From Vulcanimicrobiota bacterium (GTDB lineage: Bacteria > Vulcanimicrobiota > Xenobia > Xenobiales > JADMJV01): DNA of 64,000 bases. The position numbers were made by a program, and so were the translations under genes. This document shows positions 2,941 to 26,535 of the stretch, piece after piece. How positions within the stretch are numbered: position 1 is the stretch's first letter; each line of letters starts with the position of its first letter. The stretch is taken from the NCBI GenBank assembly GCA_050250895.1, contig JBFWNU010000001.1, positions 1,774,884-1,838,883 of the forward strand, in the 5' to 3' direction. Below the pieces are notes generated by a model, which ran no database searches, was not told the origin of the DNA, and saw only the letters and a program-made list of their open reading frames with translations.

Positions 2941-3102
2941 CTAGCCGGCGTACCACTGGAAGAAGCGCAGGGCGGCGCCGAATACCATCAGCAGGGCGAG
3001 AAAGAGAGCTAGACGGTCCAGGAATTCATTGACCTCCTGGCGACGCTTCCAGAGGCGATAGCCCAACACGCCGCCGATGGCCATGAGCAGCAACCACTTC
3101 AT
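2941..3102 (-). CDS. Small membrane protein (53 aa), absent from the ORF track
   Basis: [53 protein letters not shown]; ATGA overlap with the upstream PPIase stop; two hydrophobic segments. Confidence 0.7.
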
Positions 3103-6337: not shown

Positions 6338-6393
6338 CGAGAGCGGTTCGCAACAGTCCAGGGAATTCCTTGGACGATGACAAAGCAGCGGAT

Positions 6394-9294
6394 ATGCCAA
6401 CAACCGCTAATTCCAAGTTCAAAGCCAATGGGGTCGGGGTCGAGGTGGCCCGCGACCGGGTCGTCTGCCGCTGGGAGAAAGACATCCACCAGAAGCTCAA
6501 CTATGCCGACGAAGACCTGGTTCTGAGAATTCTCAAGGGTCTCGAACCGGTGTCGCAGCATCGTATCAATCATCTCTCCCAGAAAGAGCTGGTGCTTGAT
6601 CCGGGCAACTATCGCGTCGAGGTAGCCCGCGCGCATCGTCCTGAAGTCGAGGTTCGTAGCTCGCTCGAGCCGACTCCCTCGGTGACCTGGATTCAGGACA
6701 GCCCCGCCTCTCAGGTGGTGATTTGGAGTCATGTCAATTGGGCCGACGTGCAAGAGCAGGTCGAGCGCATCCACGTTGTCGACTGGGAGACCGAAACCTC
6801 GGTAGCTTTGAAGGTGGTGTGGGAAGGCGACTCCGCCGCCGGACGCAGCGTGCAGTGGCTGCCCGTTCCGGCCCGCGACCACGTCACCCTGATGGGCCGG
6901 GCCGAGCAGGTCGAACTGTGCGTGGTCGACCCCGACACCCACAAGATCTATAAGTCGCTGTTCCTGGCTCGAAAGTTGCCGGTCAGCCCACTCCAGGTGT
7001 TGGCCAACGTTCCCATCGAAGTCCCGGTGCCTGAAGGTTACCTCGGGCTCACGCGGGAGATTATCGAGACCGACACCCTGCAGGTCCGAGCCGAATGGAA
7101 TCTCGGCCGCGACCAGGGCGAGAAGTTTCGCCTGGTGCTCGAGCGCGATGGCCAGGTGGTCAGTCCCAATGAGTGCATGGTCGGCCCTCGGGGCGACTAC
7201 TACTTCCATAGTCTCAAGCCGGGCAACTACGTAGCCAAGCTGTACAAACCCCGTTCCAAGAAGGCGGTCATCGAGTCTTCGGGTCTACCACTGGTAGAGA
7301 TTGGTAACTCTATCACTTTGATGCCGGTCGACGAGCGCCGGGGCTTTGCCTATTGGCACATCGCCGCCGACACCTGGTCGCGTTTGACTGAAAAGCACGG
7401 CGAGTTACTCGGTCGAGTGCGCTGTGTCTTGCGCATCCATCTCGAAGTCGGTGGACGTTTTACTCCTCGCAACGATCTCTCGCGCGAGGTCAACCTCGAC
7501 TCGGCCCGTGACTACTATCTCGACCTGGCTCCTGACCGCACCTATAAAGCGCAACTGGTGGCCAGCATCGATGGAGCCACCGAAGAGGTCTTGACCGAGC
7601 TGTCCAATCGCTGTCAACTCGGCCGCTTGGAGGCCGGTACCAACCCGCTTGAGCACAAATGGCTGCCTCAGCAGATCGAGCATCCTTCCATTCGGCCGAT
7701 GCGGGGGCCGACCGGCATCGCCAAATATTCCATCGGCTATCTGTTGCTGCATCTGCACGCGCACCTACCGTTCGTGCCCGATCCCATTCACTTCGGCGAC
7801 GACAAAGACGCCTGGCGTCCCGTCGGCTATCCCCAGGAATGGTATGCCGAAGCCGTGCGCGAGACCTATCTGCCCCTGCTCTACCTATTCGAACGGCTGC
7901 ATCGCGAAGGCGTCGACTTCAAGCTGTCGATGGACATCTCGCCGCCGGTGGCCGCCATGATGCGCAGCCAGCGGCATGCTGCCGATGTGCTCGAATACCA
8001 TCAGCGATTGATCAATCTGGCTCGTCTCGAGGTCGAACGAACCGCTCGCGAAGAGCCCCACTATCTGGCCCCGGCCGAGATGCACCTGCGCCACCTGCGC
8101 CGCAATCTGGATCTGTTCATGGGCTACAAAGGCGACCTTATCGGGGCCTTCAAGAAGTTTCAGGATCTGGGTCATCTCGAGATCTGCACCTGCGTGGGTA
8201 CCCATCCCATGTTGCCTCTGTGGACGAGCCGGCCCCAGGCCATGCGGGGCCAGATTCTGGCCGCGGCACGCTATCACGAAGAGATCTTCGGGCGGCCCTC
8301 GCTCGGCGTCTGGCTACCCGAGTGCGCCTATACGCCCGGAGTCGAGCCCTACCTCGAAGAAGCCGGCTTTCGCTACTTCTTCTCGGAAGAGCATACCGTC
8401 ACCCGGGGCGATTGTCCGGCCGAATTCTGGGTCAACGCGCCCGTCTATGCCAAAGGCTCGCAACTGGCCATCTTTCCTCGCGATCCCGAGACCGGCAAGC
8501 AGGTTTGGAGCGGTGACGAGGGCTACCCCGGAGACGCCGACTATCTCGAGTTTCACATTCGGGGCGGGCCCTTCAAATACAATCGTATCACCGACCGGCG
8601 TGGCGGGCACAAAGAGCCTTACGTGCCCGAGTGGGCTGACAACAAAGCGTCCAGTCACGCCGGCCATTTCCTGGATTGTCGCAACGCTCGCTTCGAATAT
8701 CTACGCCGCATGATGTGGAAAAAGCCGGTGATAGTGGCTCCCTACGACGCCGAGTTGTTCGGGCATCACTGGTATGAGGGGCCCAGCTTTCTGTACTATC
8801 TGTTCAAGAAGATCCATTACGACCAGAATCAGACCGAACTGATCACTCCCAGCGCCTACCTGGCAGCCAATCCGACCTCCCAGGACATGTACCCGTGCGT
8901 CTCGAGCTGGGGCCACAAGGGTACCTTCGAAAAGTGGATGTATGGCGGCACCTCGTGGATGTATCGGCACGCCCACGAGGCGGCTGACGAGATGGGCAAA
9001 CTGGCGGCTATGGGTTACGACAACGAGATGCAAAAGCGCGTGCTGGCCCAGGCGGGTCGCCAGTTGATGTTGGCCATGTCGAGCGATCTGCCTTTCGTGA
9101 TCTCCAACGGTCACTTCGTGGATCGCATGAAAGACCTGTTCTTCTCGTCGCTGCGAGAGTTCTGGCGTCTGGCCACCGAGTTTCGCAGCCTGCGCGAGGG
9201 CGGTTCGATCGACGAAGATCGGCTGCGTTGTCTCGAACTCGAAAACTGCGTCTTCCCCAACCTCGATCCGAACTGGTTCGCTAATCTAGGCTGA
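6394..9294 (+). CDS. GH57 1,4-alpha-glucan branching enzyme with long N-terminal extension including a DUF4912-like domain
   Basis: HAHLPFV, WLPECAY (nucleophile Glu), PYDAELFGHHWYEG (acid/base Asp); ITLMPVDERRGFAYWHI resembles DUF4912. Confidence 0.88.
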   Translation: MPTTANSKFKANGVGVEVARDRVVCRWEKDIHQKLNYADEDLVLRILKGLEPVSQHRINHLSQKELVLDPGNYRVEVARAHRPEVEVRSSLEPTPSVTWIQDSPASQVVIWSHVNWADVQEQVERIHVVDWETETSVALKVVWEGDSAAGRSVQWLPVPARDHVTLMGRAEQVELCVVDPDTHKIYKSLFLARKLPVSPLQVLANVPIEVPVPEGYLGLTREIIETDTLQVRAEWNLGRDQGEKFRLVLERDGQVVSPNECMVGPRGDYYFHSLKPGNYVAKLYKPRSKKAVIESSGLPLVEIGNSITLMPVDERRGFAYWHIAADTWSRLTEKHGELLGRVRCVLRIHLEVGGRFTPRNDLSREVNLDSARDYYLDLAPDRTYKAQLVASIDGATEEVLTELSNRCQLGRLEAGTNPLEHKWLPQQIEHPSIRPMRGPTGIAKYSIGYLLLHLHAHLPFVPDPIHFGDDKDAWRPVGYPQEWYAEAVRETYLPLLYLFERLHREGVDFKLSMDISPPVAAMMRSQRHAADVLEYHQRLINLARLEVERTAREEPHYLAPAEMHLRHLRRNLDLFMGYKGDLIGAFKKFQDLGHLEICTCVGTHPMLPLWTSRPQAMRGQILAAARYHEEIFGRPSLGVWLPECAYTPGVEPYLEEAGFRYFFSEEHTVTRGDCPAEFWVNAPVYAKGSQLAIFPRDPETGKQVWSGDEGYPGDADYLEFHIRGGPFKYNRITDRRGGHKEPYVPEWADNKASSHAGHFLDCRNARFEYLRRMMWKKPVIVAPYDAELFGHHWYEGPSFLYYLFKKIHYDQNQTELITPSAYLAANPTSQDMYPCVSSWGHKGTFEKWMYGGTSWMYRHAHEAADEMGKLAAMGYDNEMQKRVLAQAGRQLMLAMSSDLPFVISNGHFVDRMKDLFFSSLREFWRLATEFRSLREGGSIDEDRLRCLELENCVFPNLDPNWFANLG

Positions 9295-9781: not shown

Positions 9782-10765
9782 TTAACTTCGCCTTGTCTCG
9801 GGACGACGCGCAAACCCTCGCCACGAGTTGCGATTGTGCCACCCGATGACCACCTCTTCGAGGCGCGAGAACCACCTGGTGAAGTCGTCCTGGGTCAGGT
9901 AGAACGCGATTTCGGGGTGGAGGTGGTCGTAGACGATGGTCTCGACCTCACGCTGGGGGAAGTCAGCCAGATACAGAATGTAGTCCTGATAGAACAGGCG
10001 CCGTTGGGGAAAGAACCGGTTCAGCGGCCGGTAGATCCCGCGCGCCAGGGCTACGATCACCCAGGCCAAGGCCCAGGCCACGGTCTTGAGCACATGGCGG
10101 GGAAGACGACTGGCCACGTGCTGACGGAAAGGGTTGACCAGATAGATGATCCAGCCGTTGTTTTCGCGACCATAGACCCAGGCCGACAAATGGCCGCCGG
10201 GCTTGACCGTATCGAGCACCGAGCGAAAGCCGCCCTCTGGGTCGGGTAGGTGGTGGAGCACGCCTACCGAGAATGCGTAGTCGAACGTGCCTGGCCGGAA
10301 GGGCAAGCGCATCAGGTCGGCTCGAACCACCTCGATGCCAGGTTGGCGACTGGTAGCCTGCCGGGCCACCTGGCTGGCCGGACCCAGATCGACCCCCACC
10401 ACCAGCCGCGCTCCGAAGCTGGCCGAAGCTAGCAGGTGTCGGCCTTTGCCGCAACCGGCGTCGAGCACCAGCTTATCGCGAAAGAAGTCGGCCTCGACGG
10501 GGCGCAGCCAGTCGAGCAACTGCTGGCGATACAAGTCGCGTTGCTCGTTGTAGTGCTGCCACTGCTCACCGAAGCTGTCAGAGACGCTCTGGCTGGCCGA
10601 GCCGACTTCGGTCAGCATCTGAGGCACGCCTTCGACCACGGGATAGCTCCGACCGCAGCGGCTGCAGTCGAGCTGACCCGATTCGAGATGATCGCCGTCA
10701 AACGAGCATTCGAGCTCGCCCCGGCAGGCTGGGCAGACGAGTATTTCGAGCATTTCGCGACGCAT
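9782..10765 (-). CDS. Class I SAM methyltransferase with N-terminal Trm112-like Zn domain
   Basis: LVCPACRGEL...CSRCGRSYPVVEGVP; VLDAGCGKG; GVLHH; KPGG. Confidence 0.88.
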   Translation of the reverse strand: MRREMLEILVCPACRGELECSFDGDHLESGQLDCSRCGRSYPVVEGVPQMLTEVGSASQSVSDSFGEQWQHYNEQRDLYRQQLLDWLRPVEADFFRDKLVLDAGCGKGRHLLASASFGARLVVGVDLGPASQVARQATSRQPGIEVVRADLMRLPFRPGTFDYAFSVGVLHHLPDPEGGFRSVLDTVKPGGHLSAWVYGRENNGWIIYLVNPFRQHVASRLPRHVLKTVAWALAWVIVALARGIYRPLNRFFPQRRLFYQDYILYLADFPQREVETIVYDHLHPEIAFYLTQDDFTRWFSRLEEVVIGWHNRNSWRGFARRPETRRS

Positions 10766-11056
10766 GGGAACTGCTTCTTGTCCAGAGATTAACATCCTGT
10801 GCATGAAAGTTTTACAGGCTGTTTACATGAAATGTGACAATACAAACACCCGCTTAAACCGATCCCTGGTATCGTCTGAGTATGGCACTGCTCGCAAACA
10901 TCGCGCAAAGCATCGACACCGAGAAGACCTGGGTGAAAATCCGGGTCGGGGCTGGACAATAGCCTTTCTCGCGTCTTTGTAACACGCTCGTAAGACCTCT
11001 AGACACCGCTTCTGTTAGGCTGAAAGAAGCCAACCACAGACATAGAGGCAGAGCAA

Positions 11057-12109
11057 ATGATTCGATTCTCCCCGGCCCAGAGCCAGATCCCCGGTACCCC
11101 AATCTCTCTCAAAGGTGCAACGCCACCCCAGGCGCAAGCCGGCCCTTCGCCCGATCAGTTCGCGGGCTCGATCGAGCCGAGCGAGCAAGCGCTAGCCCCC
11201 GAAGCTTCTAGCAGTCGCAAAGGTTTAGCGGCCGCGGGCATGTTGGCCCTGGCCGCCACCGGTCTGCTGGCCGGCTGTTCGGCCGCGAGCCCCGATACCC
11301 CGGCCGAACCTCCTTCGAGCAGCGTCAGTGTCGACATCGAACTGGCTCACTCCGAGAGCGGATTGGCCGTCGAGATCGTGCCGGTCGACGCCGGGCGCGT
11401 CGACATCCTTCGCCAAACCCAAACCTCGGAAGACGGCAAGACCACCGAGAATCTGCCCTACTCGCCCCTGGGCGTCAATCTCGGTGACGGTCTGTTCTTC
11501 GACTTCAACGGCAACCTTTCGCTGGTTCCCACCCGCGCTTTTGGCGAGGCTCATAGCGGTAGTTTCACTCGGGTCGAGATCGATCCGGCCGGGTGGAACA
11601 ACGAGACCAGCATTAGCATTCGCGACGGTCGCGTGACCGTCAATCCGCCCGGCTTTGGCAACGACACCTCCCTCGATGTGGGTCGCGACGACGTCAAAGT
11701 CGACCCACCAGGCTTCTCGAACGGCTACACCATCTCGCGCAGCGGCAATCGGACCGTCATCGACCCGCCGGGGTGGAACAACGAGATCACCATCACCCAC
11801 GGCTCGAGCGAGATTCGCGTCGACCCTCCAGGATTGGCCAACAGCACCACCATCAGCCGCTCCGAGAATCGCCTCGAGGTCGACCCCCCTGGCTGGGGTC
11901 GTGACCACACGGTGATCACCCGCAGCGGCGGCAAGATCACCATCGATCCCACCGGCTTCTGGAACAGCACCACCATCACCCAGCGCGGCAACCGGACCGA
12001 CTACGACCCGCCCGGCCTCAACAACACGACCTCGGTGACATCCCATGATACCCACACCGATGTCGACCCGCCCGGCTGGAACAACGGCACTACCATCAAC
12101 CACCGGTAG
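11057..12109 (+). CDS. Putative lipoprotein with nine ~20-aa beta-rich DPPG repeats
   Basis: Hydrophobic stretch and lipobox LAGC (Cys74); xxV/IDPPGW/FNNxTTI repeats. Confidence 0.8.
   Translation: MIRFSPAQSQIPGTPISLKGATPPQAQAGPSPDQFAGSIEPSEQALAPEASSSRKGLAAAGMLALAATGLLAGCSAASPDTPAEPPSSSVSVDIELAHSESGLAVEIVPVDAGRVDILRQTQTSEDGKTTENLPYSPLGVNLGDGLFFDFNGNLSLVPTRAFGEAHSGSFTRVEIDPAGWNNETSISIRDGRVTVNPPGFGNDTSLDVGRDDVKVDPPGFSNGYTISRSGNRTVIDPPGWNNEITITHGSSEIRVDPPGLANSTTISRSENRLEVDPPGWGRDHTVITRSGGKITIDPTGFWNSTTITQRGNRTDYDPPGLNNTTSVTSHDTHTDVDPPGWNNGTTINHR
11570..12106 (+). repeat. 60-bp-period degenerate coding repeat (9 units)
   Basis: D/N-P codons recur near 11582, 11642, 11702, 11762, 11822, 11882, 11945, 12005 and 12065. 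Confidence 0.85.
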
Positions 12110-12432
12110 CCGTGGATGAAAACCGCAAAGGCGCTGAGGCGGCAGTGCATCGCGAAGGGTGGGCGCTCGCCTTGGCGAAACCGCGGTGGGTCGCGGAGGA
12201 GTGGGCGTTCGCGATCGGGCAGCCACCGCCGTTTTGAGCATCCCGTTCGAGGTGAAAAATACTAACCCATAAATTCGCCAGGACGCTCACCCCACGCCCC
12301 CCACAACCCTCTCCGTGCCCTCCTGATCTCCGCGGTTGATTTTTCAGGCGCGCCCCACCCACACCGACCGGTGCTTCGACCACGCGCCGAGGGGGCAGTG
12401 TCGCTCGCTCGGCTCGAGCGGTGTTAGGAAGT

Positions 12433-12873
12433 TTATCCGGCCTTCTTTTCCAGACTCTCGATCCTGGCTCGCGCCTCGTCCATTTCTTGCTGCAAGCGCG
12501 CTTGTTCCAACTCCACCGCCGTAACCCGCTGGAGCTGGTCCGTGTCATGGGTTACGAGCATCTCTGTCACCTCGTCAAAACGACAGACGAAGTTGTCAAA
12601 GCGACGCTCCCCTGTGTCAATCCTTTCATTGGTGGCAATCATCACCTGATGGACGTGACCGACGCTTCGATGCATTTCGGCCAAGCCTGTCTGCGTCTGG
12701 GCCAGGGCTCTCTGCATGTCGGCCAAGCCACTTTGGGCCACCTCCAAGCCTTTTTGTAACTGGCCCACTTGCTTCTCGACCGCCTTCATTCCCTCGCTCA
12801 CGCCTCGACGTTCTTCTCGGGCGGCATGTAGTTCGGCTTGGACTTCTCGCAGCTTTTTCTCGATGGGATTCAT
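12433..12873 (-). CDS. Coiled-coil hypothetical protein
   Basis: 146-aa ORF with heptad pattern; TATACT-like -10 just upstream. Confidence 0.7.
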   Translation of the reverse strand: MNPIEKKLREVQAELHAAREERRGVSEGMKAVEKQVGQLQKGLEVAQSGLADMQRALAQTQTGLAEMHRSVGHVHQVMIATNERIDTGERRFDNFVCRFDEVTEMLVTHDTDQLQRVTAVELEQARLQQEMDEARARIESLEKKAG

Positions 12874-13030
12874 AACAGGTTTAGTATAGCGAACGTCGTC
12901 GGCCTAAAACAAGCAGACAAGTCGTGAACCTTTGTCTACGAAAAGTTCGTACAAGAACGTTGTGTTAAAGGGGTTTGCCCCGCGGGTTGGCAGTGGAATG
13001 ACTGAGCACGCCAATTTCTCCGGAGGTTCC

Positions 13031-13855
13031 ATGCCAACGCTCACTTTCGACTGCAGCCACTGGATTTCGCGCGACCGTTACCCGGTTACCGAACTCGATA
13101 GCCCGGCCGGTCAGGCTTTTCTCGAAGACTGCCGCAGCCAGTTTCGCCGGGAAGGAGTGCTCGAGCTCGAGGGCTTCGTGACCTCAGAGTGTCTTGATGC
13201 CCTGGTGGAAGAGTCGACCCGCTACGAGGCGATGGCCTTTCACAGCACCGTCACGGGCAACGCTTATCTCGACCAGGGCGACTCCAATCTGCCGGCCGAC
13301 CACGCTCGCAATCTGACCGAGACCACCACCCTGGGAGTGGTCGCCTACGACCAGCTGCCTGGCGACTCGGTGCTGCGTCGCCTTTACGAGTGGGAGCCGC
13401 TGATGAAGTTCGTGGGAGCGGTGCTCGAGTTGCCGGCCATCTATCGCTATGCCGACCCCATGGGGGCTCTCAACCTGTCGGTGATGACTGAAGGCGAATA
13501 TCTGCGCTGGCACTTCGACCAGAGCGATTTCGTCACGTCGCTGGCCATCCAGTCGGCCGAGCGCGGCGGAGCTTTCGAGTATGTGCCGGCCTTGCGCAGT
13601 GCCGATGACGAGAACTTCGAGGGGGTCAAAGCCATCCTGCAGGGTTCTCGCCAGGGGGTGGGTCTGGTGCCAACCCTGCCCGGCTCGCTGGTGCTCTTTC
13701 GGGGGCGCTACTGCCTGCATCGGGTCACTCCCATCGAGGGCTCGCGCAGCCGCTTGATCGGCTTGCTTTCTTATGACACCGAGCCCGACCGCACCGGCAC
13801 CGACCACCTGCGCCAGATCCGTTATGGGCGCACCACCCCCTACACTCAGGAGTAG
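13031..13855 (+). CDS. Fe(II)/2-oxoglutarate-dependent oxygenase, BesD/HalD-like fold, hydroxylase type (HxD)
   Basis: SD GGAGG; WHFD...GGAFEY...LHRVTP...SRLIGLLSY gives the HxD...H triad and the 2OG-binding Arg. Confidence 0.8.
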   Translation: MPTLTFDCSHWISRDRYPVTELDSPAGQAFLEDCRSQFRREGVLELEGFVTSECLDALVEESTRYEAMAFHSTVTGNAYLDQGDSNLPADHARNLTETTTLGVVAYDQLPGDSVLRRLYEWEPLMKFVGAVLELPAIYRYADPMGALNLSVMTEGEYLRWHFDQSDFVTSLAIQSAERGGAFEYVPALRSADDENFEGVKAILQGSRQGVGLVPTLPGSLVLFRGRYCLHRVTPIEGSRSRLIGLLSYDTEPDRTGTDHLRQIRYGRTTPYTQE

Positions 13856-13858
13856 CCA

Positions 13859-15328
13859 ATGCAGACCATCGAAAACCAGGCCGTGCGCGAATGGGCGCGC
13901 GGTTGGATGAACACGACCCGAGGCGGCTTCGTGGATGGGGCCTGGCTCGAGGGCGGCACGCCCCTGGCCAGCATCAATCCCGAGCACGGCCGCGAGCAGG
14001 CCCACTTTCACGCCACCACCGACCAGCAGCTCGAGCAGGCTGTGGAGGCGGCCAATCGGGCCTTTGCGAGTTGGTCCGGCCTGACCCGCAAAGACCGAGC
14101 GGCTCGCCTGCGGGCCATGGGTGAGGTGGTCCGCTCGCATCGGGCCGAACTGGCCACCCTCGAGAGCCTCGACACCGGCAAGACGTTTCGCGAAGCCTTT
14201 GAAGACGATCTGCCCGACAGTGCCGACATCTTCGACTATTACGCCGGCTGGGTCGACAAGCTGTACGGCGAGACCTGCCCGGTCGAAGAGGGCTTGGTCA
14301 ACTTCACCCGGCACGAGCCGGTGGGGGTGTGTGCCCAGATCGTTCCCTGGAACTTTCCCCTCTTGATGGCCTGCTGGAAGATTGCGCCGGCCCTGGCCAT
14401 GGGCAACACCGTGATCATCAAGCCCAGCGAGCATACCTGCATGAGCCTGGTGCGCCTGTTCGAGTTGCTCGAGGGCGTCTTGCCGGCCGGTGTGCTTAAC
14501 CTGGTGCTGGGCGACGGCCGGGTGGGCGACGCTTTGTGTCGCCACTCTCAGGTGCACAAGGTCGCTTTCACCGGCAGCACGGCCGTGGGGCGCAAAATCC
14601 TGCACGCCGCGGCCGACTCGAACCTCAAGCCCGTAAGCCTCGAACTGGGAGGCAAGTCGCCGGTGGTGATCTTCGAGGATGTCGATCTGAAGGCTTGTCT
14701 TGACCGCTGCTTTCCGGCCATGTTCAGCCACAAAGGCGAAAAATGCAGCGAGCCCACTCGCTTTCTCATCCATCGCAGCCTGTATGCGGCCGCCATCGAG
14801 GACCTGGTCGCCCGGGCCGAGGCGGTGGTCTGCGGCGACCCCTTCGACCCCCACACCCAGCAGGGACCCCAATGCCATCGCGACCACTTCGAGCGGGTGC
14901 TCGATTATATCGAGATCGGCAAAAAAGACGGCGCTCGGCTGGTGGCCGGGGGCGGTCGCCCTCAACTCGAGGGCTTTTTCGTGCGGCCCACCATCTTTGC
15001 CGATGTCACTCCCGAAATGCGCATCTTTCAGGAGGAGATCTTCGGGCCGGTGCTTTGTCTAACGCCGTTTGACCGCGAAGAAGAGGCCATCGCCCTGGCC
15101 AACGCTTCGACCTATGGCCTGGCCGCTGGCGTCTATACTCGGGACGTGTCGCGCGCCCACCGGGTGGCCAACCGCCTCGAAGCCGGCATGGTCTTTGTCA
15201 ATCGCTACGGCTGCTACGACTTCGCCAGCCCCTTCGGCGGCTTCAAGCAAAGCGGCTGGGGCAAAGAGATGGCCATCCATTCGCTGGCCAGCTATACCAG
15301 GCTCAAGTCCATCTGGATCGCCCTTTAG
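13859..15328 (+). CDS. NAD(P)-dependent aldehyde dehydrogenase (betaine/aminoaldehyde-DH-like)
   Basis: PWNFP, FTGST, ELGGKSP, catalytic Cys in GEKC, EEIFGP, PFGGFKQSG. Confidence 0.93.
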   Translation: MQTIENQAVREWARGWMNTTRGGFVDGAWLEGGTPLASINPEHGREQAHFHATTDQQLEQAVEAANRAFASWSGLTRKDRAARLRAMGEVVRSHRAELATLESLDTGKTFREAFEDDLPDSADIFDYYAGWVDKLYGETCPVEEGLVNFTRHEPVGVCAQIVPWNFPLLMACWKIAPALAMGNTVIIKPSEHTCMSLVRLFELLEGVLPAGVLNLVLGDGRVGDALCRHSQVHKVAFTGSTAVGRKILHAAADSNLKPVSLELGGKSPVVIFEDVDLKACLDRCFPAMFSHKGEKCSEPTRFLIHRSLYAAAIEDLVARAEAVVCGDPFDPHTQQGPQCHRDHFERVLDYIEIGKKDGARLVAGGGRPQLEGFFVRPTIFADVTPEMRIFQEEIFGPVLCLTPFDREEEAIALANASTYGLAAGVYTRDVSRAHRVANRLEAGMVFVNRYGCYDFASPFGGFKQSGWGKEMAIHSLASYTRLKSIWIAL

Positions 15329-16807
15329 GTGCGTCACGGCACCTTCTGGCCGCCCTTCGTCTTGTTGGTGGGGGGAGTGGTGGCCACGATGGTCGGTGGC
15401 GCCGATCTGGTGGCCCGTTTGCAGACGGCTGTGCGACTGTGCGTGGCCGGTCTGGCGCCACTTTTTATAGGTACCTCGATGGTGGCCGTGCTGGCCTGCC
15501 TGATCGTCGCTTTCTCGCCATTGGGCTCGCGTCGACTGGGCGGGCCCCAGGCCGAGCGGGTGCTTGCGCCCCTTCAGTATTTTATGGTGGCCCTGTGCAC
15601 CACCGTGGCCGTGGGCATCCTCTTCTGGGCCACGGCCGAGCCGCTCTATCACTTGAAGGCCCCCCCGCTTGGCTTGCAAGAGCATTCACCGGCGGCGGTC
15701 CGCTTTGCCATGGCCACTTTGCTGGTCCACTGGACCCTGATTCCTTACGCCATCTATGCTGTGCCGGCCGTGCTCTTCGCCCTGGTCTTCTACAACCGGG
15801 GCCTCCCCTTTCGCCTGTCCTCGTGCCTGCAGCCGCTGTTTGGGTGGAGCAGCGAGGGCTGGTTGGCCGACCTGGTCGACTCGGTCTGCCTGTTCGCGCT
15901 GGTGGCCGGCATGGCCGCCTCGCTGGGGGCCGGCATTCTCACCCTCTCGGGTGGGGTGGCCCACCTCACCGGGTTGACCAGCGCCTGGCCGATGTGGTTG
16001 GTCATCGGCCTTTTGGTGGTGGCGACCTTCGTGATTTCGGCTGCCTCGGGTCTCGAGCGCGGCATTCGCATTCTCTCGCAGGTCAACACCGTGCTTTTTC
16101 TCGCCATCATCGCCTTCGTGTTTCTGGCCGGACCCACCGCCGCCGAGGTTCGCCTGACCGCGACGGCGGTTTGGGATTTCTTGAGCGGTTTTGTGCGCCG
16201 GGGCCTGCTTCTCGATTTTGCCCCGGGTGACGCCTGGCCCATCGATTGGACTCTGTTCTACTGGTGCAACTGGCTGGCCTGGGCTCCGGTCACGGCCGTC
16301 TTTCTCGGCCGTATCTCGCGGGGCTACACGGTGCGCCAGATGCTGCTCTTTACCTGGATTTTTCCCAGTCTGTTCGTGACCGTCTGGATGGGCGTGCTGG
16401 GGGGCACCTCGGTGGCCTTTGACGCCGACGGCTCGCTCTCGAGGTTGCTGAGCGAGCAGGGCCCCGAAGCGGTCAGCTATGCCATCTTTGCGGCCATGCC
16501 GGCGGCGGGGCTGGTGATTCCGCTGTTTCTGGCCGGGGTGTTCATCTCGTACGTGACCGCGGCCGACTCCAACACCCTGGCCATGGCCGGACTTTGCTCG
16601 ACGGGCATCTCGCCCGATAGCCCCGAGCCGCCGCTCTCGCTGAAGCTGACCTGGGGGGCGGTGGTGGGGGCCGTTTCGCTGGTGATGATTTGCGGGGCCG
16701 GCATCGAAGGGGTCAAGACCCTGTCGAATCTGGGCGGGGTTCCGGCCCTCGGCTTCGAGATGCTGTGCGCGCTGGCCCTGTTGAAGCTGGTCTATGAAGA
16801 TCGTTGA
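15329..16807 (+). CDS. BCCT-family (betaine/carnitine/choline) transporter
   Basis: About 12 TM segments; LFWATAEP, HWTLIPYAIY, WTLFYWCNWLAWAP...GRISRG, TAADS. Confidence 0.9.
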   Translation: MRHGTFWPPFVLLVGGVVATMVGGADLVARLQTAVRLCVAGLAPLFIGTSMVAVLACLIVAFSPLGSRRLGGPQAERVLAPLQYFMVALCTTVAVGILFWATAEPLYHLKAPPLGLQEHSPAAVRFAMATLLVHWTLIPYAIYAVPAVLFALVFYNRGLPFRLSSCLQPLFGWSSEGWLADLVDSVCLFALVAGMAASLGAGILTLSGGVAHLTGLTSAWPMWLVIGLLVVATFVISAASGLERGIRILSQVNTVLFLAIIAFVFLAGPTAAEVRLTATAVWDFLSGFVRRGLLLDFAPGDAWPIDWTLFYWCNWLAWAPVTAVFLGRISRGYTVRQMLLFTWIFPSLFVTVWMGVLGGTSVAFDADGSLSRLLSEQGPEAVSYAIFAAMPAAGLVIPLFLAGVFISYVTAADSNTLAMAGLCSTGISPDSPEPPLSLKLTWGAVVGAVSLVMICGAGIEGVKTLSNLGGVPALGFEMLCALALLKLVYEDR

Positions 16808-17966
16808 AGTGTTGACCAGCCCGGGCTGGGGAGCCTACTACGTCGAGGACCTGGCCGCGTTGCAGGCCCGGCCCACGGCCGAAGTGGACCGTTATCTGGC
16901 CGAGCCGGTCACCCCCTCGTTTCGGCGGGTGCGCGAGCCGGCCGAAGTGCTCTCGGTGGGGTTGCGCCTCGAGGATGGTCGGGTGGCCTGGGGCGACTGC
17001 GTGGGCGTCTCTTATGGCGGCAAGGCCGGGCGCGACCCCGTCTTTCACAGCCAGGCCGCCCAGCTCCCCGAATTGGCCGGGCGCAGTTGGAGCCTCGAAC
17101 AACTGGCCGAACTCGAACTGCCTCAGGCCATCCACTATGGCCTGAGCCAGGCGCTGGTGGCCGCCCAGGCGCTGAGCTGGGGAGTGTCCCAGACCGAGGT
17201 CTGGTGCCGGCTGTTTGACCTGTCCCTGCCCAGCGCCCCGTTGCCCTTGCACGGCTCGAGCGGCAACGCACGCCAGGTCAACGCCGACAAAATGATTTTG
17301 CGCCGGCTGGCTTCGCTGCCCGCCGGCCAGGTCGACGACCTGGAGGCCCAGGTGGGCCACGATGGGCAGCTTTTGCTCGACTATGCCGACTGGCTGCGCG
17401 AGCGCCTCGAGCAACTGGGGGAGCCCGGCTATCGCCCTACCGTTCATCTCGATGTGCACGGTGCGCTGGGCCGCATCTTTGAGGATGACCAGCTGGTGAC
17501 TTTCGTGGCCCGTCTGGCCGATTCCGTGGCTCCTTATCCGCTGCGGCTCGAGAGCCTGGTGGTCGAGGCCAGCCGGCAGGCTCAGATCGAGCGGCTGGGT
17601 CGGCTGAAAGGTCGAGTGGCCGCCGAACTGGTGGTGGACGAGTGGGCCAACACCCTCGAGGACGTGATGGCCTTCGCCCAGGCCGGGGTGGTCGACATGG
17701 TCCACCTTAAGGTGCCCGACCTGGGTAGCTTGCTACACTCGTATCGCGCCGTGGAAGCCTGCCGAGGGCTGGGGGTGAAGACGTTGCTGGGCGGCAGTTG
17801 CATCGAGACCGAAGTCTCGGCCAGGGCCTGCGTGCACCTGGGGCTGGCGGCCCGACCCGATCTGTTGATGTGCAAGCCGGGCATGGGGGTCGACGAGGCC
17901 ATCGTGCTGGTCCACAACGAAATGCAGCGAACCCTGGCCGAGCTCGCCAGCGGGATGTGGCACTAG
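16794..17966 (+). CDS. Methylaspartate ammonia-lyase homolog (enolase superfamily) with divergent active site
   Basis: MKIVEVL, GDCxxVxYxGxAGRDP, HLDVHG, LRLE, LVVDEW, HLKVPDLG, GGSCxET, KPGMGVDE, NEMQR. Confidence 0.88.
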   Translation: MKIVEVLTSPGWGAYYVEDLAALQARPTAEVDRYLAEPVTPSFRRVREPAEVLSVGLRLEDGRVAWGDCVGVSYGGKAGRDPVFHSQAAQLPELAGRSWSLEQLAELELPQAIHYGLSQALVAAQALSWGVSQTEVWCRLFDLSLPSAPLPLHGSSGNARQVNADKMILRRLASLPAGQVDDLEAQVGHDGQLLLDYADWLRERLEQLGEPGYRPTVHLDVHGALGRIFEDDQLVTFVARLADSVAPYPLRLESLVVEASRQAQIERLGRLKGRVAAELVVDEWANTLEDVMAFAQAGVVDMVHLKVPDLGSLLHSYRAVEACRGLGVKTLLGGSCIETEVSARACVHLGLAARPDLLMCKPGMGVDEAIVLVHNEMQRTLAELASGMWH

Positions 17967-18796
17967 CAGTCGATGACTTGATCGAAGCCGATCTCGCCGA
18001 AGGAACGGTCGGTGCGCCGCTTGAGATCCGAGATGGCCTCGGCCAGTTCGCGGCTCACCGACGGTTTGTCGCACAGATGGTGGTAGACGGGCTGGGGCAC
18101 AGCTCGCACCAGCGGCTTGGTGGCCTCGAAGAACTCTTCGGCAGCATAGATCGAGCCGTCCTTGAGCGGGTCGGGAGGGTTGACCAGTTTGATCCAATCT
18201 ACGTCACCGATAGCCACCGGGCCGCCCACGTCCCACTCGATGTAGCGGCCGACCTGCTTGGTTTTTTTCTCCACCAGCAACTTGACCTCGGGCACATTGA
18301 CCCCTCGCCGGCTGTAGCGCCGGGCCAGATCGCCGCGCAACAACATAAATTCCCACATCGCTTCGAGGTCCTCGGAGCGACCCTGATAGACGGCCTTGCC
18401 AGCCTGGGCGGCAGCCCGGTTACGCTCGAACCAATGCGAGAGCAACACCTCGATCGTCGGCTTTTCGACATAAACCGAGCCATCATCGGTGAGCAGGTCC
18501 ATGGACAGACGCAACTCGCGAGCCACGAGGATAGCCACCGGCAAGACTTCGAGCGCGAAGAACGACGGGCGTGGCACCTGGGTCTCGAAAGCCAACCCGA
18601 TCTCGTCGTCGTTCTCGGGAGGGTAGCGCACGAAGCGACACTCTACCGAAGTGTCGACGTTACGGTAGACGATGTGGACTTCATCGCCCTGACGCCGCGG
18701 CGAAGCTAGATTTTCGATTTGCTCGAAGGTTCGGTCGAGCTCTTTGGCTGTGGGCCTTTTACCCTGAGAAGTCAGGTAAAGCAGTTCGAAGAGCAA
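17963..18796 (-). CDS. Hypothetical protein
   Basis: 277-aa ORF, TTG start with AAGGAG SD, globular composition. Confidence 0.75.
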   Translation of the reverse strand: MLFELLYLTSQGKRPTAKELDRTFEQIENLASPRRQGDEVHIVYRNVDTSVECRFVRYPPENDDEIGLAFETQVPRPSFFALEVLPVAILVARELRLSMDLLTDDGSVYVEKPTIEVLLSHWFERNRAAAQAGKAVYQGRSEDLEAMWEFMLLRGDLARRYSRRGVNVPEVKLLVEKKTKQVGRYIEWDVGGPVAIGDVDWIKLVNPPDPLKDGSIYAAEEFFEATKPLVRAVPQPVYHHLCDKPSVSRELAEAISDLKRRTDRSFGEIGFDQVIDC

Positions 18797-18934
18797 ACAG
18801 AATGCTCTCCTTCGTATTCGTATTTCCCGGACGAATGCTGTCAGAAGACTTCGTCCGCTAGCAGCGGATCCCTGCGACGTTTGGGGGACGACCCCACGGG
18901 CAAAATATCAGGTGACATCAAGACAGGAGTAACC

Positions 18935-20245
18935 ATGGCTCGCAAAAAGAAAGCCTCGACCGGCGAACGAGTCGTCATCGTTGACGGCGTAAGAACTCCC
19001 TTCGTTAAAGCCTACACCGACTTCAAAGACATGACGACCGTGGATCTGGCCAAGACGGCCACCCGCGAGTTGCTCGAGCGCACCGAACTCGACCCCGAAG
19101 AAATCGACGAGGTCATCATGGGCTGCGTCCTGCCGTCGGTGCACGCCCCTAACCTGGCTCGCGAAGTGGTGCTTGCCCTGGGTTTGCCCGCCCGTATCGG
19201 TGGCTTCACCCTGGGCCGGGCCTGCGCTTCCAGCGCTCAAGCGGTCATCACCGCGGCCGAGGGCATCCTGGCCGGAGAATACAGCGTGGTCATCGCCGGT
19301 GGCGCCGAGTCGATGTCGAACGTTCCCGTTCCCTACTCGAAGAACGTGGTCGATTCGCTGATGGCCCTGCAGAAAGCCAAGACCATTCCGGGCCGGCTCA
19401 AAGCCTTGACCAGCATCAACCTCGACGCCCTGTTGCCCACGCCGCCCTCCATCGCCGAGTCGGCCACCGGCAAGACCATGGGGCAACACGCCGAGATGAT
19501 GGCGCGCAAGAACAAAATCAGCCGCACCGCTCAGGACGAGTTGGCCCTGGCCAGTCATCAGCGGGCCGCCGCCGCCGCCGAGGCCGGCAAGACGGGGGAA
19601 GAGGTGGTCACCGTCTACCCCGCCCCGGCTTTCTCGCCCGTCGACAACGACAACTTCGTGCGCGGCGATACCAGCCTCGAGAAGCTGGGTGAACTCAAGC
19701 CGGCTTTCGACAAACGCTACGGCACTCTGACCGCCGGCAACTCGAGCGGCCTCACCGATGGTGCCGCCGTGGTGCTGGTGATGTCCGAGAGCAAGGCCAA
19801 AGAACTCGGCTTCGAGCCGTTGGCGGTGGTCAGGTCCTGGTCGACCTGCTCGCTCGACCCGGCCGATCAGTTGCTGCTCGGACCGGCCCTGGCTATACCC
19901 GAGGCGCTCGACAAAGCTGGTCTGGGCCTGGAAGAGATGGATTTGATCGATCTGCACGAGGCTTTCGCCGCTCAGGTGTTATCGGTCACCCAGGCGCTCG
20001 AATCAGTCGACTTCGCCCGTGAGCGGCTGGGTCGCGACGAGCCGGTCGGCAAAATCGACCGCGAGAAACTCAACGTCAACGGGGGCTCCATTGCCCTGGG
20101 TCATCCGTTCGGAGCCACCGGGGCCCGCATGATCCTGATGATGGCCAAAGAACTCAAGCGCCGCAAGGCCAAATACGCCTGCCTGTCGCTATGTGCTGCT
20201 GGAGGGATGGGAACCGCCCTCATTCTGGAAGGAATGGAGAACTAA
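18935..20245 (+). CDS. fadI: 3-ketoacyl-CoA thiolase (FadI type)
   Basis: RACAS catalytic Cys, HEAFAAQ, GGSIALGHPFGATG, LCAAGG; SD AGGAG. Confidence 0.9.
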   Translation: MARKKKASTGERVVIVDGVRTPFVKAYTDFKDMTTVDLAKTATRELLERTELDPEEIDEVIMGCVLPSVHAPNLAREVVLALGLPARIGGFTLGRACASSAQAVITAAEGILAGEYSVVIAGGAESMSNVPVPYSKNVVDSLMALQKAKTIPGRLKALTSINLDALLPTPPSIAESATGKTMGQHAEMMARKNKISRTAQDELALASHQRAAAAAEAGKTGEEVVTVYPAPAFSPVDNDNFVRGDTSLEKLGELKPAFDKRYGTLTAGNSSGLTDGAAVVLVMSESKAKELGFEPLAVVRSWSTCSLDPADQLLLGPALAIPEALDKAGLGLEEMDLIDLHEAFAAQVLSVTQALESVDFARERLGRDEPVGKIDREKLNVNGGSIALGHPFGATGARMILMMAKELKRRKAKYACLSLCAAGGMGTALILEGMEN

Positions 20246-23825: not shown

Positions 23826-25475
23826 TTGGAAAGAACTAGTCACCTCAGGGTCACCTATCTCGACGGTGCCAACGACGAAAGACCTGCCGTGACCGTTCCC
23901 GAGCCCGAGCCGCCGCCGTCCTGGGCCGATCTCGAGATACCGGCTCCGGGCAGCCCCGAAGAGGACGAGCTTTTTAGTAAGCTATACCAGCAGCTTCCCT
24001 CTCTGTGGAAGGCGCTGATGACCGATGGGCACGTCGAGCAGACGGTGGTGGTGGTTCCCTCGCTGTCGCTCGACACCGAAGAGTTGCGCAAACTCAAAGG
24101 CGCCAAGCATTATGAAGAGCGCTTGCTCTTTCTGCTGATCTTGCTGAGCCTGCCCAAGACGAGGGTCATTTTCGTCACTTCCGAGCCGATCCACCCTCAC
24201 ATCGTCGACTACTACCTGCAGTTGCTGCCGGGGATCCCCTTCTCGCACGCCCGCCAGCGCTTGACGATGTTTGCCACCTATGACTCTTCCTCGAAGTCTT
24301 TGACCCAGAAGATTCTCGAGCGACCCACCTTGATTCGCCGCATTCGCAAGGCCGTGGGTGGGGCCAAGAATACTCACCTGACCGTGTTCAACGTCACTCC
24401 CCTCGAAAAGAGCCTGTCGGTCGCCCTGGGCATCCCCTTGCTCGGCCCCGATCCGGCTCACCTTCACTACGGCTCCAAGAGCGGCTGCCGCAAGCTCTTC
24501 AAAGACGCCGAGGTTCCTCTGCCCGACGGCATGGAAGACCTCAAGAACGAAGAAGAGATCTTTGCCTCGATCCTCGAGTTGCGCCGTCGCCACGAAGGGC
24601 TCAAGCGAGTGGTCATCAAGATCAACGAAGGGTTTTCGGGGGAGGGCAACGCCATCTTCCACATGTCCCACATCGAAGGCGCCAAGAATGACGACGAGGC
24701 TCTTGAACTCCTGCGCGAGATGGTGCCCAAACACGCCCGCTATCAAGCTCCCGGGATGGACTGGGCGGGCTTTCTCAAGAAATTTCGCGAGATGCAGGGC
24801 ATTGTCGAGGTCTTCATCGAGGGTGACGAAAAGGCTTCGCCCTCGGTGCAAATGCGCATCACTCCACTGGGTGAGGCCCAAATCATTTCGACCCACGACC
24901 AGGTCCTGGGTGGGCCCGACGGTCAGGTCTTCGTGGGCTGCAGCTTTCCGGCCCTGCCCAGTTATCGGCCTCAGTTGCACGAAGCCGGCCACATCATCGG
25001 CGACAGACTGGCCAGGGCCGGTGTGATCGGGCGTCTCTCCATCGACTTCCTGGCCGTGCCCAACGGCAAGGACTGGGACATGTACGCCGTCGAGATCAAC
25101 CTGCGCAAAGGCGGTACGACCCATCCTTTCCGGACTTTGCAGTTCTTGACCGGCGGCCGCTACAACCCCGAGACCGGCCTGTTCCACTCGGGCTCGGCCA
25201 CCCCCAAGTATTACTTCGCCTCCGACAATCTCGAGTCGGAGAAATACAAGGGCTTGTTGCCCGAGGATTTGATCGACATCGTCACCTACACCGGCCTGCA
25301 CTACACCACCTCCACCAACACCGGCGTGGTCTTCCACATGATCGGGGCCCTGTCCGAGTTTGGCAAGATCGGCGTCACCTGTGTGGGCGATTCCCCCGAA
25401 GAGGCCGAGAAGCTCTACCAGAAGACGCTCGAGACCCTCGACTGGGCGGCCGGCACCACCGAGTGGATTGTCTGA
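23826..25475 (+). CDS. ATP-grasp peptide ligase PGM1-related protein
   Basis: VVVPSLS, HYEERLLFLL, GSKSG, NEGFSGEGNA, STHDQ, EINLRKGGTTHP, TGVVFHM. Confidence 0.82.
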   Translation: MERTSHLRVTYLDGANDERPAVTVPEPEPPPSWADLEIPAPGSPEEDELFSKLYQQLPSLWKALMTDGHVEQTVVVVPSLSLDTEELRKLKGAKHYEERLLFLLILLSLPKTRVIFVTSEPIHPHIVDYYLQLLPGIPFSHARQRLTMFATYDSSSKSLTQKILERPTLIRRIRKAVGGAKNTHLTVFNVTPLEKSLSVALGIPLLGPDPAHLHYGSKSGCRKLFKDAEVPLPDGMEDLKNEEEIFASILELRRRHEGLKRVVIKINEGFSGEGNAIFHMSHIEGAKNDDEALELLREMVPKHARYQAPGMDWAGFLKKFREMQGIVEVFIEGDEKASPSVQMRITPLGEAQIISTHDQVLGGPDGQVFVGCSFPALPSYRPQLHEAGHIIGDRLARAGVIGRLSIDFLAVPNGKDWDMYAVEINLRKGGTTHPFRTLQFLTGGRYNPETGLFHSGSATPKYYFASDNLESEKYKGLLPEDLIDIVTYTGLHYTTSTNTGVVFHMIGALSEFGKIGVTCVGDSPEEAEKLYQKTLETLDWAAGTTEWIV

Positions 25476-26535
25476 GCTTCCGCTAGAAGGCGTTCGCGTT
25501 CTCGATCTCTCGCGGCTGCTGCCGGGCCCTTTCGCGACCCTGCAGCTGGCCGACCTGGGAGCCGAGGTGATCAAGGTCGAGAGCCCCACCCGGCCCGATT
25601 ATTTGCGTTTTCTCGAGCCCTATGTCGAGGACCAGAACGTGGCCTTTCGCCTGGTCAATCGCGGGAAGAAGAGCGTGATCATCAACTTCGAGACCGAGGC
25701 CGGGGCGGCTCTGGTGCGTCGCCTGGCGGCTACCTGCCAGGTGGTGATCGAGTCTTTTCGCGCCGGCTTTCTGGGCCGCTTCGGTCTCGATTATGCAGGC
25801 TTGGCCGACCCTGGTCTGATCTATTGTTCGCTCACCGCCTACGGTCAGTTTTCGGCCCGGGCCGCTCATGACCTGAACTCCTTGGCCGTGACGGGGCTGG
25901 CTGACCTGTTGGCGGGGCCGGAGGGTCCGGTGGTTCCTAAGGTTCAGTTGGCTGACATCACCGGGGGGTTGACTGCCGCTAACGCCATACTGGCGGCCCT
26001 GGTGGCCCGCGCTCGCACCGGCAAAGGGCGTTATCTCGATGTGAGCATGGCCGATGCGGCCTACCACCTCACGCTGCTTTCGTCCGAGTCGGCCCGTCAC
26101 GGGGTCGATTCGTTCCACGGCGGGGCCCTCGACGGGCGGGCCCGGTTCTATCGCTACTATTGCTGTGCCGACGGCAAGTGGCTGGCGGTGGGGGCCATGG
26201 AAGACAAGTTCCGGCAGTTGCTGGTCGAGGCCCTGGGCAGCGACGACCCGGGTCCGGTCCTGGCCAGTCGCGAGCGGGCCCACTGGGTCGAGGTACTCGG
26301 TCCCCTGGATGCTTGTGTAGAACCGGTGCTCTCGGCCGAAGAGGTGCTCGAGTCGCAATGGTTTCGTCAGCGTTTTTCGGCCGACCATCTGCCCGGCCTG
26401 CTCGAGGCTAGCTACCCCGGCCGCGGGGGGGCGGCCTGCCCGCCGGGAGTCCATACCGCGGAGCAGCTTTTGGCTCTGGGAGTGAGCCAGGCCGAGTTCG
26501 AGAGACTGGTCGCCGAGGGCGTGGTGGCCGGGTGA
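25468..26535 (+). CDS. Family III CoA-transferase (CaiB/BaiF, alpha-methylacyl-CoA racemase-like)
   Basis: PLEGVRVLDLSRLLPGP...LADLGAEVIKVE, NRGKKS, AHDLN, LAD. Confidence 0.88.
   Translation: MSELPLEGVRVLDLSRLLPGPFATLQLADLGAEVIKVESPTRPDYLRFLEPYVEDQNVAFRLVNRGKKSVIINFETEAGAALVRRLAATCQVVIESFRAGFLGRFGLDYAGLADPGLIYCSLTAYGQFSARAAHDLNSLAVTGLADLLAGPEGPVVPKVQLADITGGLTAANAILAALVARARTGKGRYLDVSMADAAYHLTLLSSESARHGVDSFHGGALDGRARFYRYYCCADGKWLAVGAMEDKFRQLLVEALGSDDPGPVLASRERAHWVEVLGPLDACVEPVLSAEEVLESQWFRQRFSADHLPGLLEASYPGRGGAACPPGVHTAEQLLALGVSQAEFERLVAEGVVAG

Follow-up and report, generated by a model that had tools for sequence, protein, structure and literature searches.

The closest described relatives of the enzyme considered here are the methylaspartate ammonia-lyases (MALs; EC 4.3.1.2) of Clostridium tetanomorphum (structure 1kcz) and Citrobacter amalonaticus (1kko). 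We analysed a 64,000-nucleotide stretch of a Vulcanimicrobiota bacterium genome (the window; contig JBFWNU010000001.1, positions 1,774,884 to 1,838,883), in which a MAL homologue, P0001, stands last in a cassette of four genes. The other three encode a putative Fe(II)/2-oxoglutarate (Fe/2OG) hydroxylase, an aldehyde dehydrogenase (ALDH) and a BCCT-family transporter. Judged by its sequence, P0001 is very unlikely to be a working methylaspartase and falls in an uncharacterised clade of its own within the MAL subgroup of the enolase superfamily. It probably carries out the last bond cleavage when some other compound is degraded.

In MAL, the C3 proton is abstracted by K331, and the enolate arising at the C4 carboxylate is stabilised by Mg2+, H194 and Q329; the amino group is bound by Q172, and by Q73 via water, the C1 carboxylate by T360 (O-gamma) and C361 (NH), and the methyl pocket is formed by F170, Y356 and L384, as described in PMC7241714. 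The same source reports wild-type-like kinetics for T360S of the C. amalonaticus enzyme and badly damaged Km or activity for Q172A and Q172N. A review names K331 as the S-specific and H194 as the R-specific base (PMC7586795). It also covers the engineered C. tetanomorphum variant CtMAL-Q73A (3zvh), in which removal of the Gln73 side chain opens the amine pocket; this variant handles N-alkyl aspartates and has a broad amine scope, with linear and cyclic alkylamines.

As for gene content, the locus recalls the L-carnitine operon of Acinetobacter baumannii, described in PMC11353897, where the BCCT protein Aci1347, CntAB, a malic semialdehyde dehydrogenase (MSA-DH) and D-malate dehydrogenase form a similar series of onium importer, aldehyde-making oxygenase, ALDH and a final enzyme leading to a central metabolite. 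That operon differs in having a Rieske oxygenase and not an Fe/2OG enzyme, an Arg-based MSA-DH, and as its last enzyme a decarboxylating dehydrogenase and not an enolase-superfamily lyase. We found no Rieske or D-malate dehydrogenase gene within our cassette.

Fold and substrate pocket of the lyase

The lyase gene and the codons discussed below are as follows (P0001 residues first, MAL residues as the ones replaced or kept):

16794..17966, plus strand: MAL-family lyase P0001, 390 aa, ATG to stop, full-length, with a remodelled substrate pocket (clade B/C, see below)
17010..17012, plus strand: codon S73, replacing the amine-binding Q73 (by alignment; role of Q73 from PMC7241714)
17250..17258, plus strand: codons H153-G154-S155, replacing F170-A171-Q172 (methyl pocket and amine-binding Gln)
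17322..17330, plus strand: codons A177-G178-Q179, replacing H194-A195-L196 (enolate/C4-carboxylate contact, R-specific base)
17451..17459, plus strand: codons D220 (Mg ligand D238 kept), V221 and H222 (Y240 to H)
17550..17552, plus strand: codon E253 (Mg ligand E273 kept)
17637..17639, plus strand: codon D282 (Mg ligand D307 kept)
17703..17711, plus strand: codons H304-L305-K306 (Q329 to H; base K331 kept)
17784..17801, plus strand: codons L331 (Y356 to L), then G333-G334-S335-C336 (T360 to S, C361 kept; C1-carboxylate contacts)

P0001 matches both Pfam domains of the family (MAAL_N, PF05034, 1.3e-31; MAAL_C, PF07476, 1.7e-77). With 361.6 bits it also clears the curated cut-off of 286.15 set for the NCBIfam equivalog TIGR01502. 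The phmmer E-values were 2e-67 against the C. tetanomorphum and 1.1e-76 against the C. amalonaticus enzyme, and identity to the MAL structures in Foldseek alignments was 34-37 %. The structure predicted by AlphaFold2 (mean pLDDT 76.6, pTM 0.79) had as its top four Foldseek matches the MAL entries 1kko, 1kcz, 3zvi and 3zvh (TM 0.78-0.80), with further enolase-superfamily structures ranking below them at TM of about 0.5-0.6. The predicted architecture is that of the MAL subgroup, with a capping domain and a TIM-like barrel carrying the metal ligands at the strand ends.

Residues were mapped by phmmer alignment to 1kcz and 1kko, which is free of gaps up to residue 87 and has traceable offsets thereafter. 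The three Mg ligands (D238, E273 and D307, here D220, E253 and D282) are kept, as are the catalytic base K331 (K306) and C361 (C336); D238/E273/D307 and K331 are also invariant in 73/73 and 120/120 homologues of the two sets described below. An earlier note on this DNA, made from the sequence alone, had named these five residues as kept and the alignment bears it out. The changes that it listed hold as well: Q73 to S73, F170 to H153, Q172 to S155, H194 to A177, Q329 to H304 and L384 to M359, and all the motifs that it quoted (VSY, LHGS, LPA, HLDVHG, LRLE, VDEW, HLK and GSC) are present in the translation. The alignment adds A171 to G154 and several replacements beyond that list, namely Y240 to H222, L196 to Q179, Y356 to L331, T360 to S335 and N362 to I337.

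The amine-binding pair of MAL, Q172 and Q73, is therefore absent from P0001, which has S155 and S73 instead. Absent too are the enolate/C4-carboxylate partners H194 and Q329 (A177 and H304 instead) and the hydrophobic 3-methyl pocket F170/Y356/L384 (H153, L331 and M359 instead). The C1-carboxylate contacts of T360 (O-gamma) and C361 (NH) do find their counterparts, in S335 and C336. Read from these alignments, the clade of P0001 retains what is needed to abstract a proton beside a carboxylate bound to Mg (D238/E273/D307 and K331), along with the second-carboxylate contacts (S360/C361), and no longer has the residues by which MAL holds the NH3+ and 3-methyl groups. The earlier note had pointed out that Q73A MAL accepts bulkier amines, which the review mentioned above confirms (PMC7586795), and P0001 has Ser73 at this position. 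Unlike the engineered variant, which was made for secondary-amine products and is not known to act on a quaternary leaving group, the clade also replaces Q172, Q329 and Y240.

Clades of the family and the genes beside them

To describe residue frequencies we used 73 full-length homologues cut from loci L003-L093. Position 73 is Q in 64, S in 4, T in 4 and A in 1; position 172 is Q in 69 and S in 4; position 194 is H in 72 and Q in 1; position 329 is Q in 66, H in 5 and N in 2; and position 356 is Y in 64, L in 4, F in 3 and I in 2. Serine at both 73 and 172 occurs in only four of the 73 (L022, L026, L028 and L029), and all four lie in the same cassette as in the window, so the rarity of this pair against bona fide MALs is confirmed. 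Of the pocket changes listed in the earlier note, Q73S and Q172S mark the whole clade. L384M carries no weight, and neither does T360S, because both are common in ordinary MALs (M384 in 5/73, S360 in 29/73).

The second set consisted of the 120 nearest proteins of a large protein collection. Just two of them are close relatives, P0002 (87 % identity) and P0003 (85 %), and both have the pocket of the window protein; P0002 deviates from it at two positions, with C at 73 and L at 384. We call the group of the window protein clade C. Clade B, with a related pocket (S73/Q170/G171/S172/H194/H329/L356) in proteins of about 405 aa, accounts for 7 of the 120, and most of the remaining ones form clade A, with about 460 aa and A/E73, H170, Q172, H194 and Q329. 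Among the 120, Q172 and Q329 are both kept in 108, and A or E stands at position 73 in 107. Several members of clade A are named as Anaerolineae or Chloroflexi metagenome-assembled genomes (MAGs).

A quick IQ-TREE was calculated from 66 rows (15 from B/C, 18 of the 107 of clade A, 25 of 64 canonical MALs drawn at random and 8 ungrouped). A branch with SH-aLRT 98 sets off clades B and C together, A groups with B/C with support 100, and canonical MALs are separate from both with support 100. As the groups were defined by their pocket residues, the tree can say no more than that the residues track descent. The MAL family in a library of representatives at 50 % identity counted 246 members at E<=1e-30, and G171, S172 and H329 occur together in about 15 of the 149 representatives listed. 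Within these about 15, position 194 is variable (H, A or Q), all 8 rows with A194 carry H170, and the base on the K331 side is invariant, as are the second-carboxylate contacts S360 and C361 in the clade. S73, S172, Q196, H329 and L356 set B/C apart from both clade A and canonical MALs, while H240, A310, S274, K77 and some others are common to B/C and clade A.

The neighbourhood of clade A was read in three annotated loci, and in all three (L017, L020 and L024) the lyase, at about 10000-11400 in each, lies among 1-3 genes of MttB-family methyltransferases. Other neighbours are an ABC importer of peptide/opine type and a molybdenum hydroxylase in L024, a BKACE enzyme and a class-III aminotransferase in L020, and an ornithine/diaminopimelate decarboxylase and a Cys/Met-type pyridoxal phosphate enzyme in L017. 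With clade A among MttB methyltransferases and B/C in a betaine-type cassette, both non-canonical clades appear to be tied to methylated-amine chemistry. The Chloroflexota enzymes of clade A share with P0001 this link, their place as sister clade of B/C, and H240, S360, A310 and other markers. They differ from P0001 in keeping Q172, H194 and Q329, in having A/E at 73 and an insertion, and in having MttB neighbours and not BCCT, Fe/2OG and ALDH genes.

No glutamate mutase E (PF06368) was found in the window genome, which is 99.6 % complete, so this genomic source of 3-methylaspartate is missing there. As a positive control, we looked at the five genomes of the same order with a canonical MAL, and in all five glutamate mutase E lies directly upstream of the MAL gene. 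This bears on the simplest alternative, that P0001 is a genuine ammonia-lyase of 3-methylaspartate (or aspartate) beside unrelated genes. The score above the TIGR01502 cut-off, the MAL fold and the kept Mg ligands and K331 all agree with it, and CtMAL H194A is described as a still usable catalyst (PMC7586795). Yet Q172, Q73 and Q329 are all replaced, and Q172A or Q172N already impairs MAL badly (PMC7241714). With the glutamate mutase lacking, the gene context conserved across phyla (see below) and the clade separate on the tree, we consider this alternative exceedingly unlikely. Compared with the two references 1kcz and 1kko as a whole, P0001 is alike in fold, the two domains, Mg ligands, Lys base and C1-carboxylate contacts and unlike in Q73, Q172, H194, Q329, F170, Y240 and Y356, in clade, in the missing mutase and in its transporter/oxygenase/ALDH cassette.

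Two further observations concern the family at large. Divergent pockets, e.g. T73/Y170/N329/I356, stand on long branches in L045 and L055 (Acidobacteriota), L086 and L091. MAL homologues flanked by a family-III CoA-transferase were seen in L030, L069, L079, L113, L118, L151, L152, L162 and L170; the pocket is canonical where read (L030, L069 and L079), and H329 is present in L151, L162 and L170.

The four-gene cassette and its candidate substrates

The lyase is preceded by three genes on the same strand:

13031..13855, plus strand: BesD/HalD-family Fe(II)/2-oxoglutarate oxygenase (Pfam HalD PF23169, 1.4e-11, 44.7 bits, cut-off 26)
13859..15328, plus strand: NAD(P)-dependent aldehyde dehydrogenase, 489 aa (Pfam Aldedh, 4e-167)
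15329..16807, plus strand: BCCT-family transporter, 492 aa (Pfam BCCT, 3.9e-115; NCBIfam matches below cut-off)

The spacing is 3 nt between oxygenase and ALDH and none between ALDH and BCCT, and the start of the lyase is translationally coupled to the BCCT gene by a 14-nt overlap. Recurrence was examined by tblastn with the window proteins over the best-listed 160 loci (80 genome and 80 metagenome loci). Among these, ALDH and BCCT genes adjoin the lyase in L022, L026, L028, L029 and L095, and the same five are exactly those with the S73/S172/H329 pocket. The hydroxylase is present in all four whose contig reaches far enough, as L029 starts inside the ALDH gene. By their record names the hosts are Bdellovibrionaceae, Deltaproteobacteria (placed in Myxococcota), Pseudomonadota and Bdellovibrionota MAGs and one metagenome contig; the metagenome loci listed added one further cassette, L095. 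Gene order is altered in L028 and L029, where the lyase comes before BCCT. An all-against-all comparison of the flanks of the cassette loci gave no fifth shared gene.

The oxygenase reading frame is open from TTG 12932, with ATG 13031 as the likely start. Its likeness to solved members of the family is weak (E 3e-4 against the halogenase HalB, 7u6i), and its profile gave only weak C-terminal matches in the PDB, to WelO5-type enzymes. In the alignment its H-F-D faces the H-W-G of HalB, the second His is present, and an Arg stands opposite Arg83 of HalB, the residue that contacts the carboxylate of the substrate; HxD, second His and Arg are conserved in 5/5 orthologues. With Asp in place of Gly in this motif and the second His, the enzyme should be a hydroxylase and not a halogenase. 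Characterised BesD/HalD-family enzymes modify lysine or ornithine at C4 or C5, according to PMC10041140.

The best NCBIfam match of the ALDH is betaine-aldehyde dehydrogenase (TIGR01804), at 521 bits and below the cut-off of 668.6. Its catalytic loop, His-Lys-Gly-Glu-Lys-Cys-Ser-Glu-Pro, is invariant in 6/6 cassette orthologues and departs from the usual Gly-Gln-x-Cys. In human ALDH7A1 the catalytic Cys is flanked by Arg301 and Thr303, which are reported to hold the distal carboxylate of aminoadipate (PMC11362210). By this analogy the Lys-Cys-Ser loop suggests an aldehyde that bears a carboxylate and a product that is probably a diacid, in agreement with the kept S360/C361 site of the lyase. 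The aromatic positions F170, W177 and Y459 of the ALDH are generic and do not discriminate substrates. For the transporter, alignment to BetP and a TMA transporter showed that most aromatic residues of transmembrane helices 4 and 8 are kept, including BetP W189, Y197, W374 and W377, and this partly kept binding box does not discriminate between the candidate substrates either.

With a transporter, three enzymes and no other conserved gene, the pathway should end in a central metabolite. Our preferred reading is that hydroxylase and ALDH turn an imported onium compound into an N-substituted L-aspartate, likeliest a trimethyl betaine, from which the lyase gives fumarate and an amine. The BCCT protein would import a zwitterionic or onium four-carbon compound with a substituted nitrogen on C2, of the form X-CH2-CH2-CH(N-R)-COO-. 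Our first candidate is homoserine betaine, or the glyceryl ether of it that occurs in diacylglyceryl-trimethylhomoserine (DGTS) lipid, with trimethylamine as the leaving group, and the second is ectoine hydroxylated at C6, with acetamidine leaving. The hydroxylase would oxidise the gamma carbon (C4, the usual position of the family counted from the carboxylate) and so give, directly or by collapse of its product, an aspartate-semialdehyde derivative, which the ALDH would convert to N,N,N-trimethyl-L-aspartate, or to N-acetimidoyl-aspartate in the case of ectoine. The lyase would then bind the new carboxylate on Mg2+, K306 would remove the C3 proton and the nitrogen group would leave C2 (E1cB) into the space opened by Q73S, A171G and Q172S, with fumarate and trimethylamine (or the amidine) as products. 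Argininosuccinate lyase and adenylosuccinate lyase, of the fumarase/aspartase superfamily, likewise release fumarate from N-substituted aspartates. EDDS lyase (PMC7586795), of the same superfamily, is a further enzyme that makes fumarate and an amine from such a substrate, the overall reaction proposed here. These C-N lyases differ from P0001 in their unrelated fold and metal-free mechanism.

A nitrogen leaving group is favoured for three reasons. Of the two faces, the K331 side has an invariant base and position 194 does not, which favours the same C2 stereochemistry as in L-aspartate, and a nitrogen leaving group would match this; clade A points to N-methyl compounds; and betaine-aldehyde dehydrogenase is the best family match of the ALDH. 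The earlier note had suggested a larger leaving group. The cassette, the MttB-linked sister clade and the lack of glutamate mutase fit a larger or onium group, but the new polar residues may also suit a hydroxyl or amidine one.

Several points weigh against the preferred reading. The new pocket residues (S73, S155, H222, H304, Q179 and H153) are polar, and no aromatic or acidic residue was gained. Trimethylammonium is usually held by an aromatic cage, so for such a polar pocket a hydroxyl (D-malate from carnitine) or amidine leaving group would fit at least as well. Two tryptophans of the BetP box are lost in the BCCT proteins (W194 to Y/H/C, W373 to N/V/I), and the generic F170/W177 of the ALDH with its sub-cut-off score may leave a charged substrate as just one possibility. 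The AlphaFold2 model is unreliable at exactly the pocket loops (pLDDT <50 at residues 72-83 and 157-181), and the association with the cassette comes from only six instances among the matches listed. Oxidation of a primary alcohol by an Fe/2OG enzyme is unusual, and N,N,N-trimethylaspartate is not known to be a natural metabolite. In view of the polar, non-aromatic pocket and the standing of trimethylaspartate, we find the reading, with its candidate pathway and substrate, plausible but would not quite call it probable.

The hydroxyl leaving group has its own route, in which the BCCT protein would import L-carnitine, Fe/2OG hydroxylation at C4, beside the N+, would free trimethylamine and malic semialdehyde, the ALDH would give D-malate and the lyase would dehydrate this to fumarate. 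The cassette would then be a non-orthologous counterpart of the Acinetobacter cnt operon. The A. baumannii operon shares this logic of BCCT, oxygenase, semialdehyde dehydrogenase and D-malate enzyme (PMC11353897). The route accounts for the need of a fourth enzyme, and the K-C-S loop of the ALDH fits its carboxylate-bearing aldehyde; diacid recognition is kept in the lyase (S335/C336) and amine recognition lost, and in the polar pocket, rich in His and Ser, a departing hydroxyl could well be assisted by general-acid catalysis. However, D-malate has the C2 configuration opposite to that of L-aspartate and would need a syn elimination or a re-seated substrate, with K331 the sole invariant base and position 194 on the other face not conserved. 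Moreover, the ALDH has W and S at the presumed places of Arg166 and Arg284 of MSA-DH (PMC11353897), as mapped by offset from the Cys, unaligned, and the methylamine methyltransferases beside the sister clade point to nitrogen-bearing substrates. We regard the carnitine route as unlikely.

Another option is that the lyase takes the first step, on an imported mono-carboxylate, and releases trimethylamine from beta-alanine betaine or turns carnitine into crotonobetaine independently of CoA; in the carnitine version crotonobetaine would then be C4-hydroxylated and the resulting 4-oxobutenoate oxidised to fumarate. A single carboxylate with an alpha-H and a beta leaving group is all that enolase-type chemistry requires (PMC7241714). 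The BCCT context fits, and so does the BKACE gene beside the clade A enzyme in L020, which is only a hint of carnitine-type chemistry. The BKACE family includes the dehydrocarnitine cleavage enzyme. Against such a first step, the second-carboxylate contacts S360 and C361 do not vary within the clade, beta-alanine betaine would yield acrylate, for whose handling the cassette conserves no gene, and the roles of hydroxylase and ALDH become less obvious. We think it improbable.

MAL reactions are reversible and used for hydroamination (PMC7586795), and the lyase might therefore add an amine to fumarate to make an N-substituted aspartate that is then processed or exported. Beside the ALDH and the hydroxylase the cassette has no further tailoring gene and no ligase gene, which gives it a catabolic look, and no biosynthetic partner is conserved. 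BCCT proteins are also mostly importers, and a biosynthetic role seems to us very improbable.

Returning to the N-substituted aspartate, its most specific form has the lyase split N,N,N-trimethyl-L-aspartate into fumarate and trimethylamine. This would make the clade the first in the enolase superfamily to release trimethylamine by a lyase reaction and the cassette the missing aerobic pathway for homoserine betaine or the DGTS head group, which is possible but in our view rather doubtful. The fate of homoserine betaine is stated as unknown in a 2021 preprint (10.1101/2021.03.10.434842). Our literature searches, which left subscription journals largely uncovered, found nothing that links MAL homologues to trimethylamine or betaine, nothing on a homoserine-betaine pathway or such a cassette, and nothing that joins ectoine with acetamidine.

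Genomic setting and meaning for the family

Compared by blastn with a genome of the same genus (G001, locus L174), the window carries one extra segment:

12016..17967, strand not applicable: segment of 5.95 kb without counterpart in G001, with a 146-aa minus-strand open reading frame (ORF) and the four-gene cassette

L174 position 5944 corresponds to window 17968 and 6049 to window 12015, so that 104 bp in G001 replace 5,952 bp of the window, and the alignment resumes two bases past the lyase stop. In 15 genomes of the same family we found no MAL homologue closer than other enolase-family proteins. A sample of 400 further genomes of the phylum contains 8 with a MAL homologue (E<=1e-60), all in one family, and the pocket is canonical in all seven that could be read full-length (L006 was not extracted). 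No integrase or convincing direct or inverted repeats were seen at the cassette borders. The four-gene cassette is self-contained and horizontally mobile, and is a mobile unit in the window genome.

An Rfam scan of 10500-19500 gave no riboswitch and only one sub-threshold snoRNA-like match, and the count of promoter and terminator sites was no higher than in shuffled sequence. No methylamine genes were seen in the rest of the window (26-64 kb), where housekeeping genes lie.

Just upstream of the cassette, an ORF of 350 aa without Pfam match (11057-12109, plus strand) is made up of repeats of 60 nt (20 aa) in which an Asp-Pro-Pro-Gly-Trp-Asn-Asn motif recurs; within this ORF the synteny with the sister genome is lost. 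The 146-aa ORF within the segment missing from G001 (12433-12873, minus strand) is coiled-coil-like, has a weak sub-cut-off match to MscS_porin and is not conserved in other cassette loci. Further away, a BesA-like ATP-grasp ligase (23826-25475, plus strand; NF042917 at 144 bits, far under the cut-off of 750) and a family-III CoA-transferase (25360-26535, plus strand) follow fadI/fadJ and a metallo-beta-lactamase-rhodanese gene. The ligase is the second Bes-pathway-like protein near the HalD-like gene and is not conserved with the cassette. On the other side of the cassette lie a HEAT-repeat protein fused to a cyclophilin domain (3099-4988, minus strand) and a GH57 branching-enzyme-like protein of 995 aa with a long N-terminal extension (DUF4912; 6307-9294, plus strand).

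Since proteins of this clade pass the equivalog cut-off, pipelines will label the whole clade methylaspartate ammonia-lyase, a concrete systematic mis-annotation of proteins that lack the residues recognising the amino and methyl groups and have no glutamate mutase partner. To our knowledge a single function has so far been assumed for the MAL subgroup. Besides the canonical enzymes, however, it contains two or more clades whose gene contexts are conserved, and the two described here are linked to nitrogen compounds of methylated or onium type. With three soluble enzymes and a transporter, the compact cassette is easily testable and may reveal an unknown route for a betaine-type solute. A naturally enlarged amine pocket would interest those who engineer MALs to make N-substituted aspartates, and the trimethylamine-releasing reading, if true, would add a new microbial source of trimethylamine.

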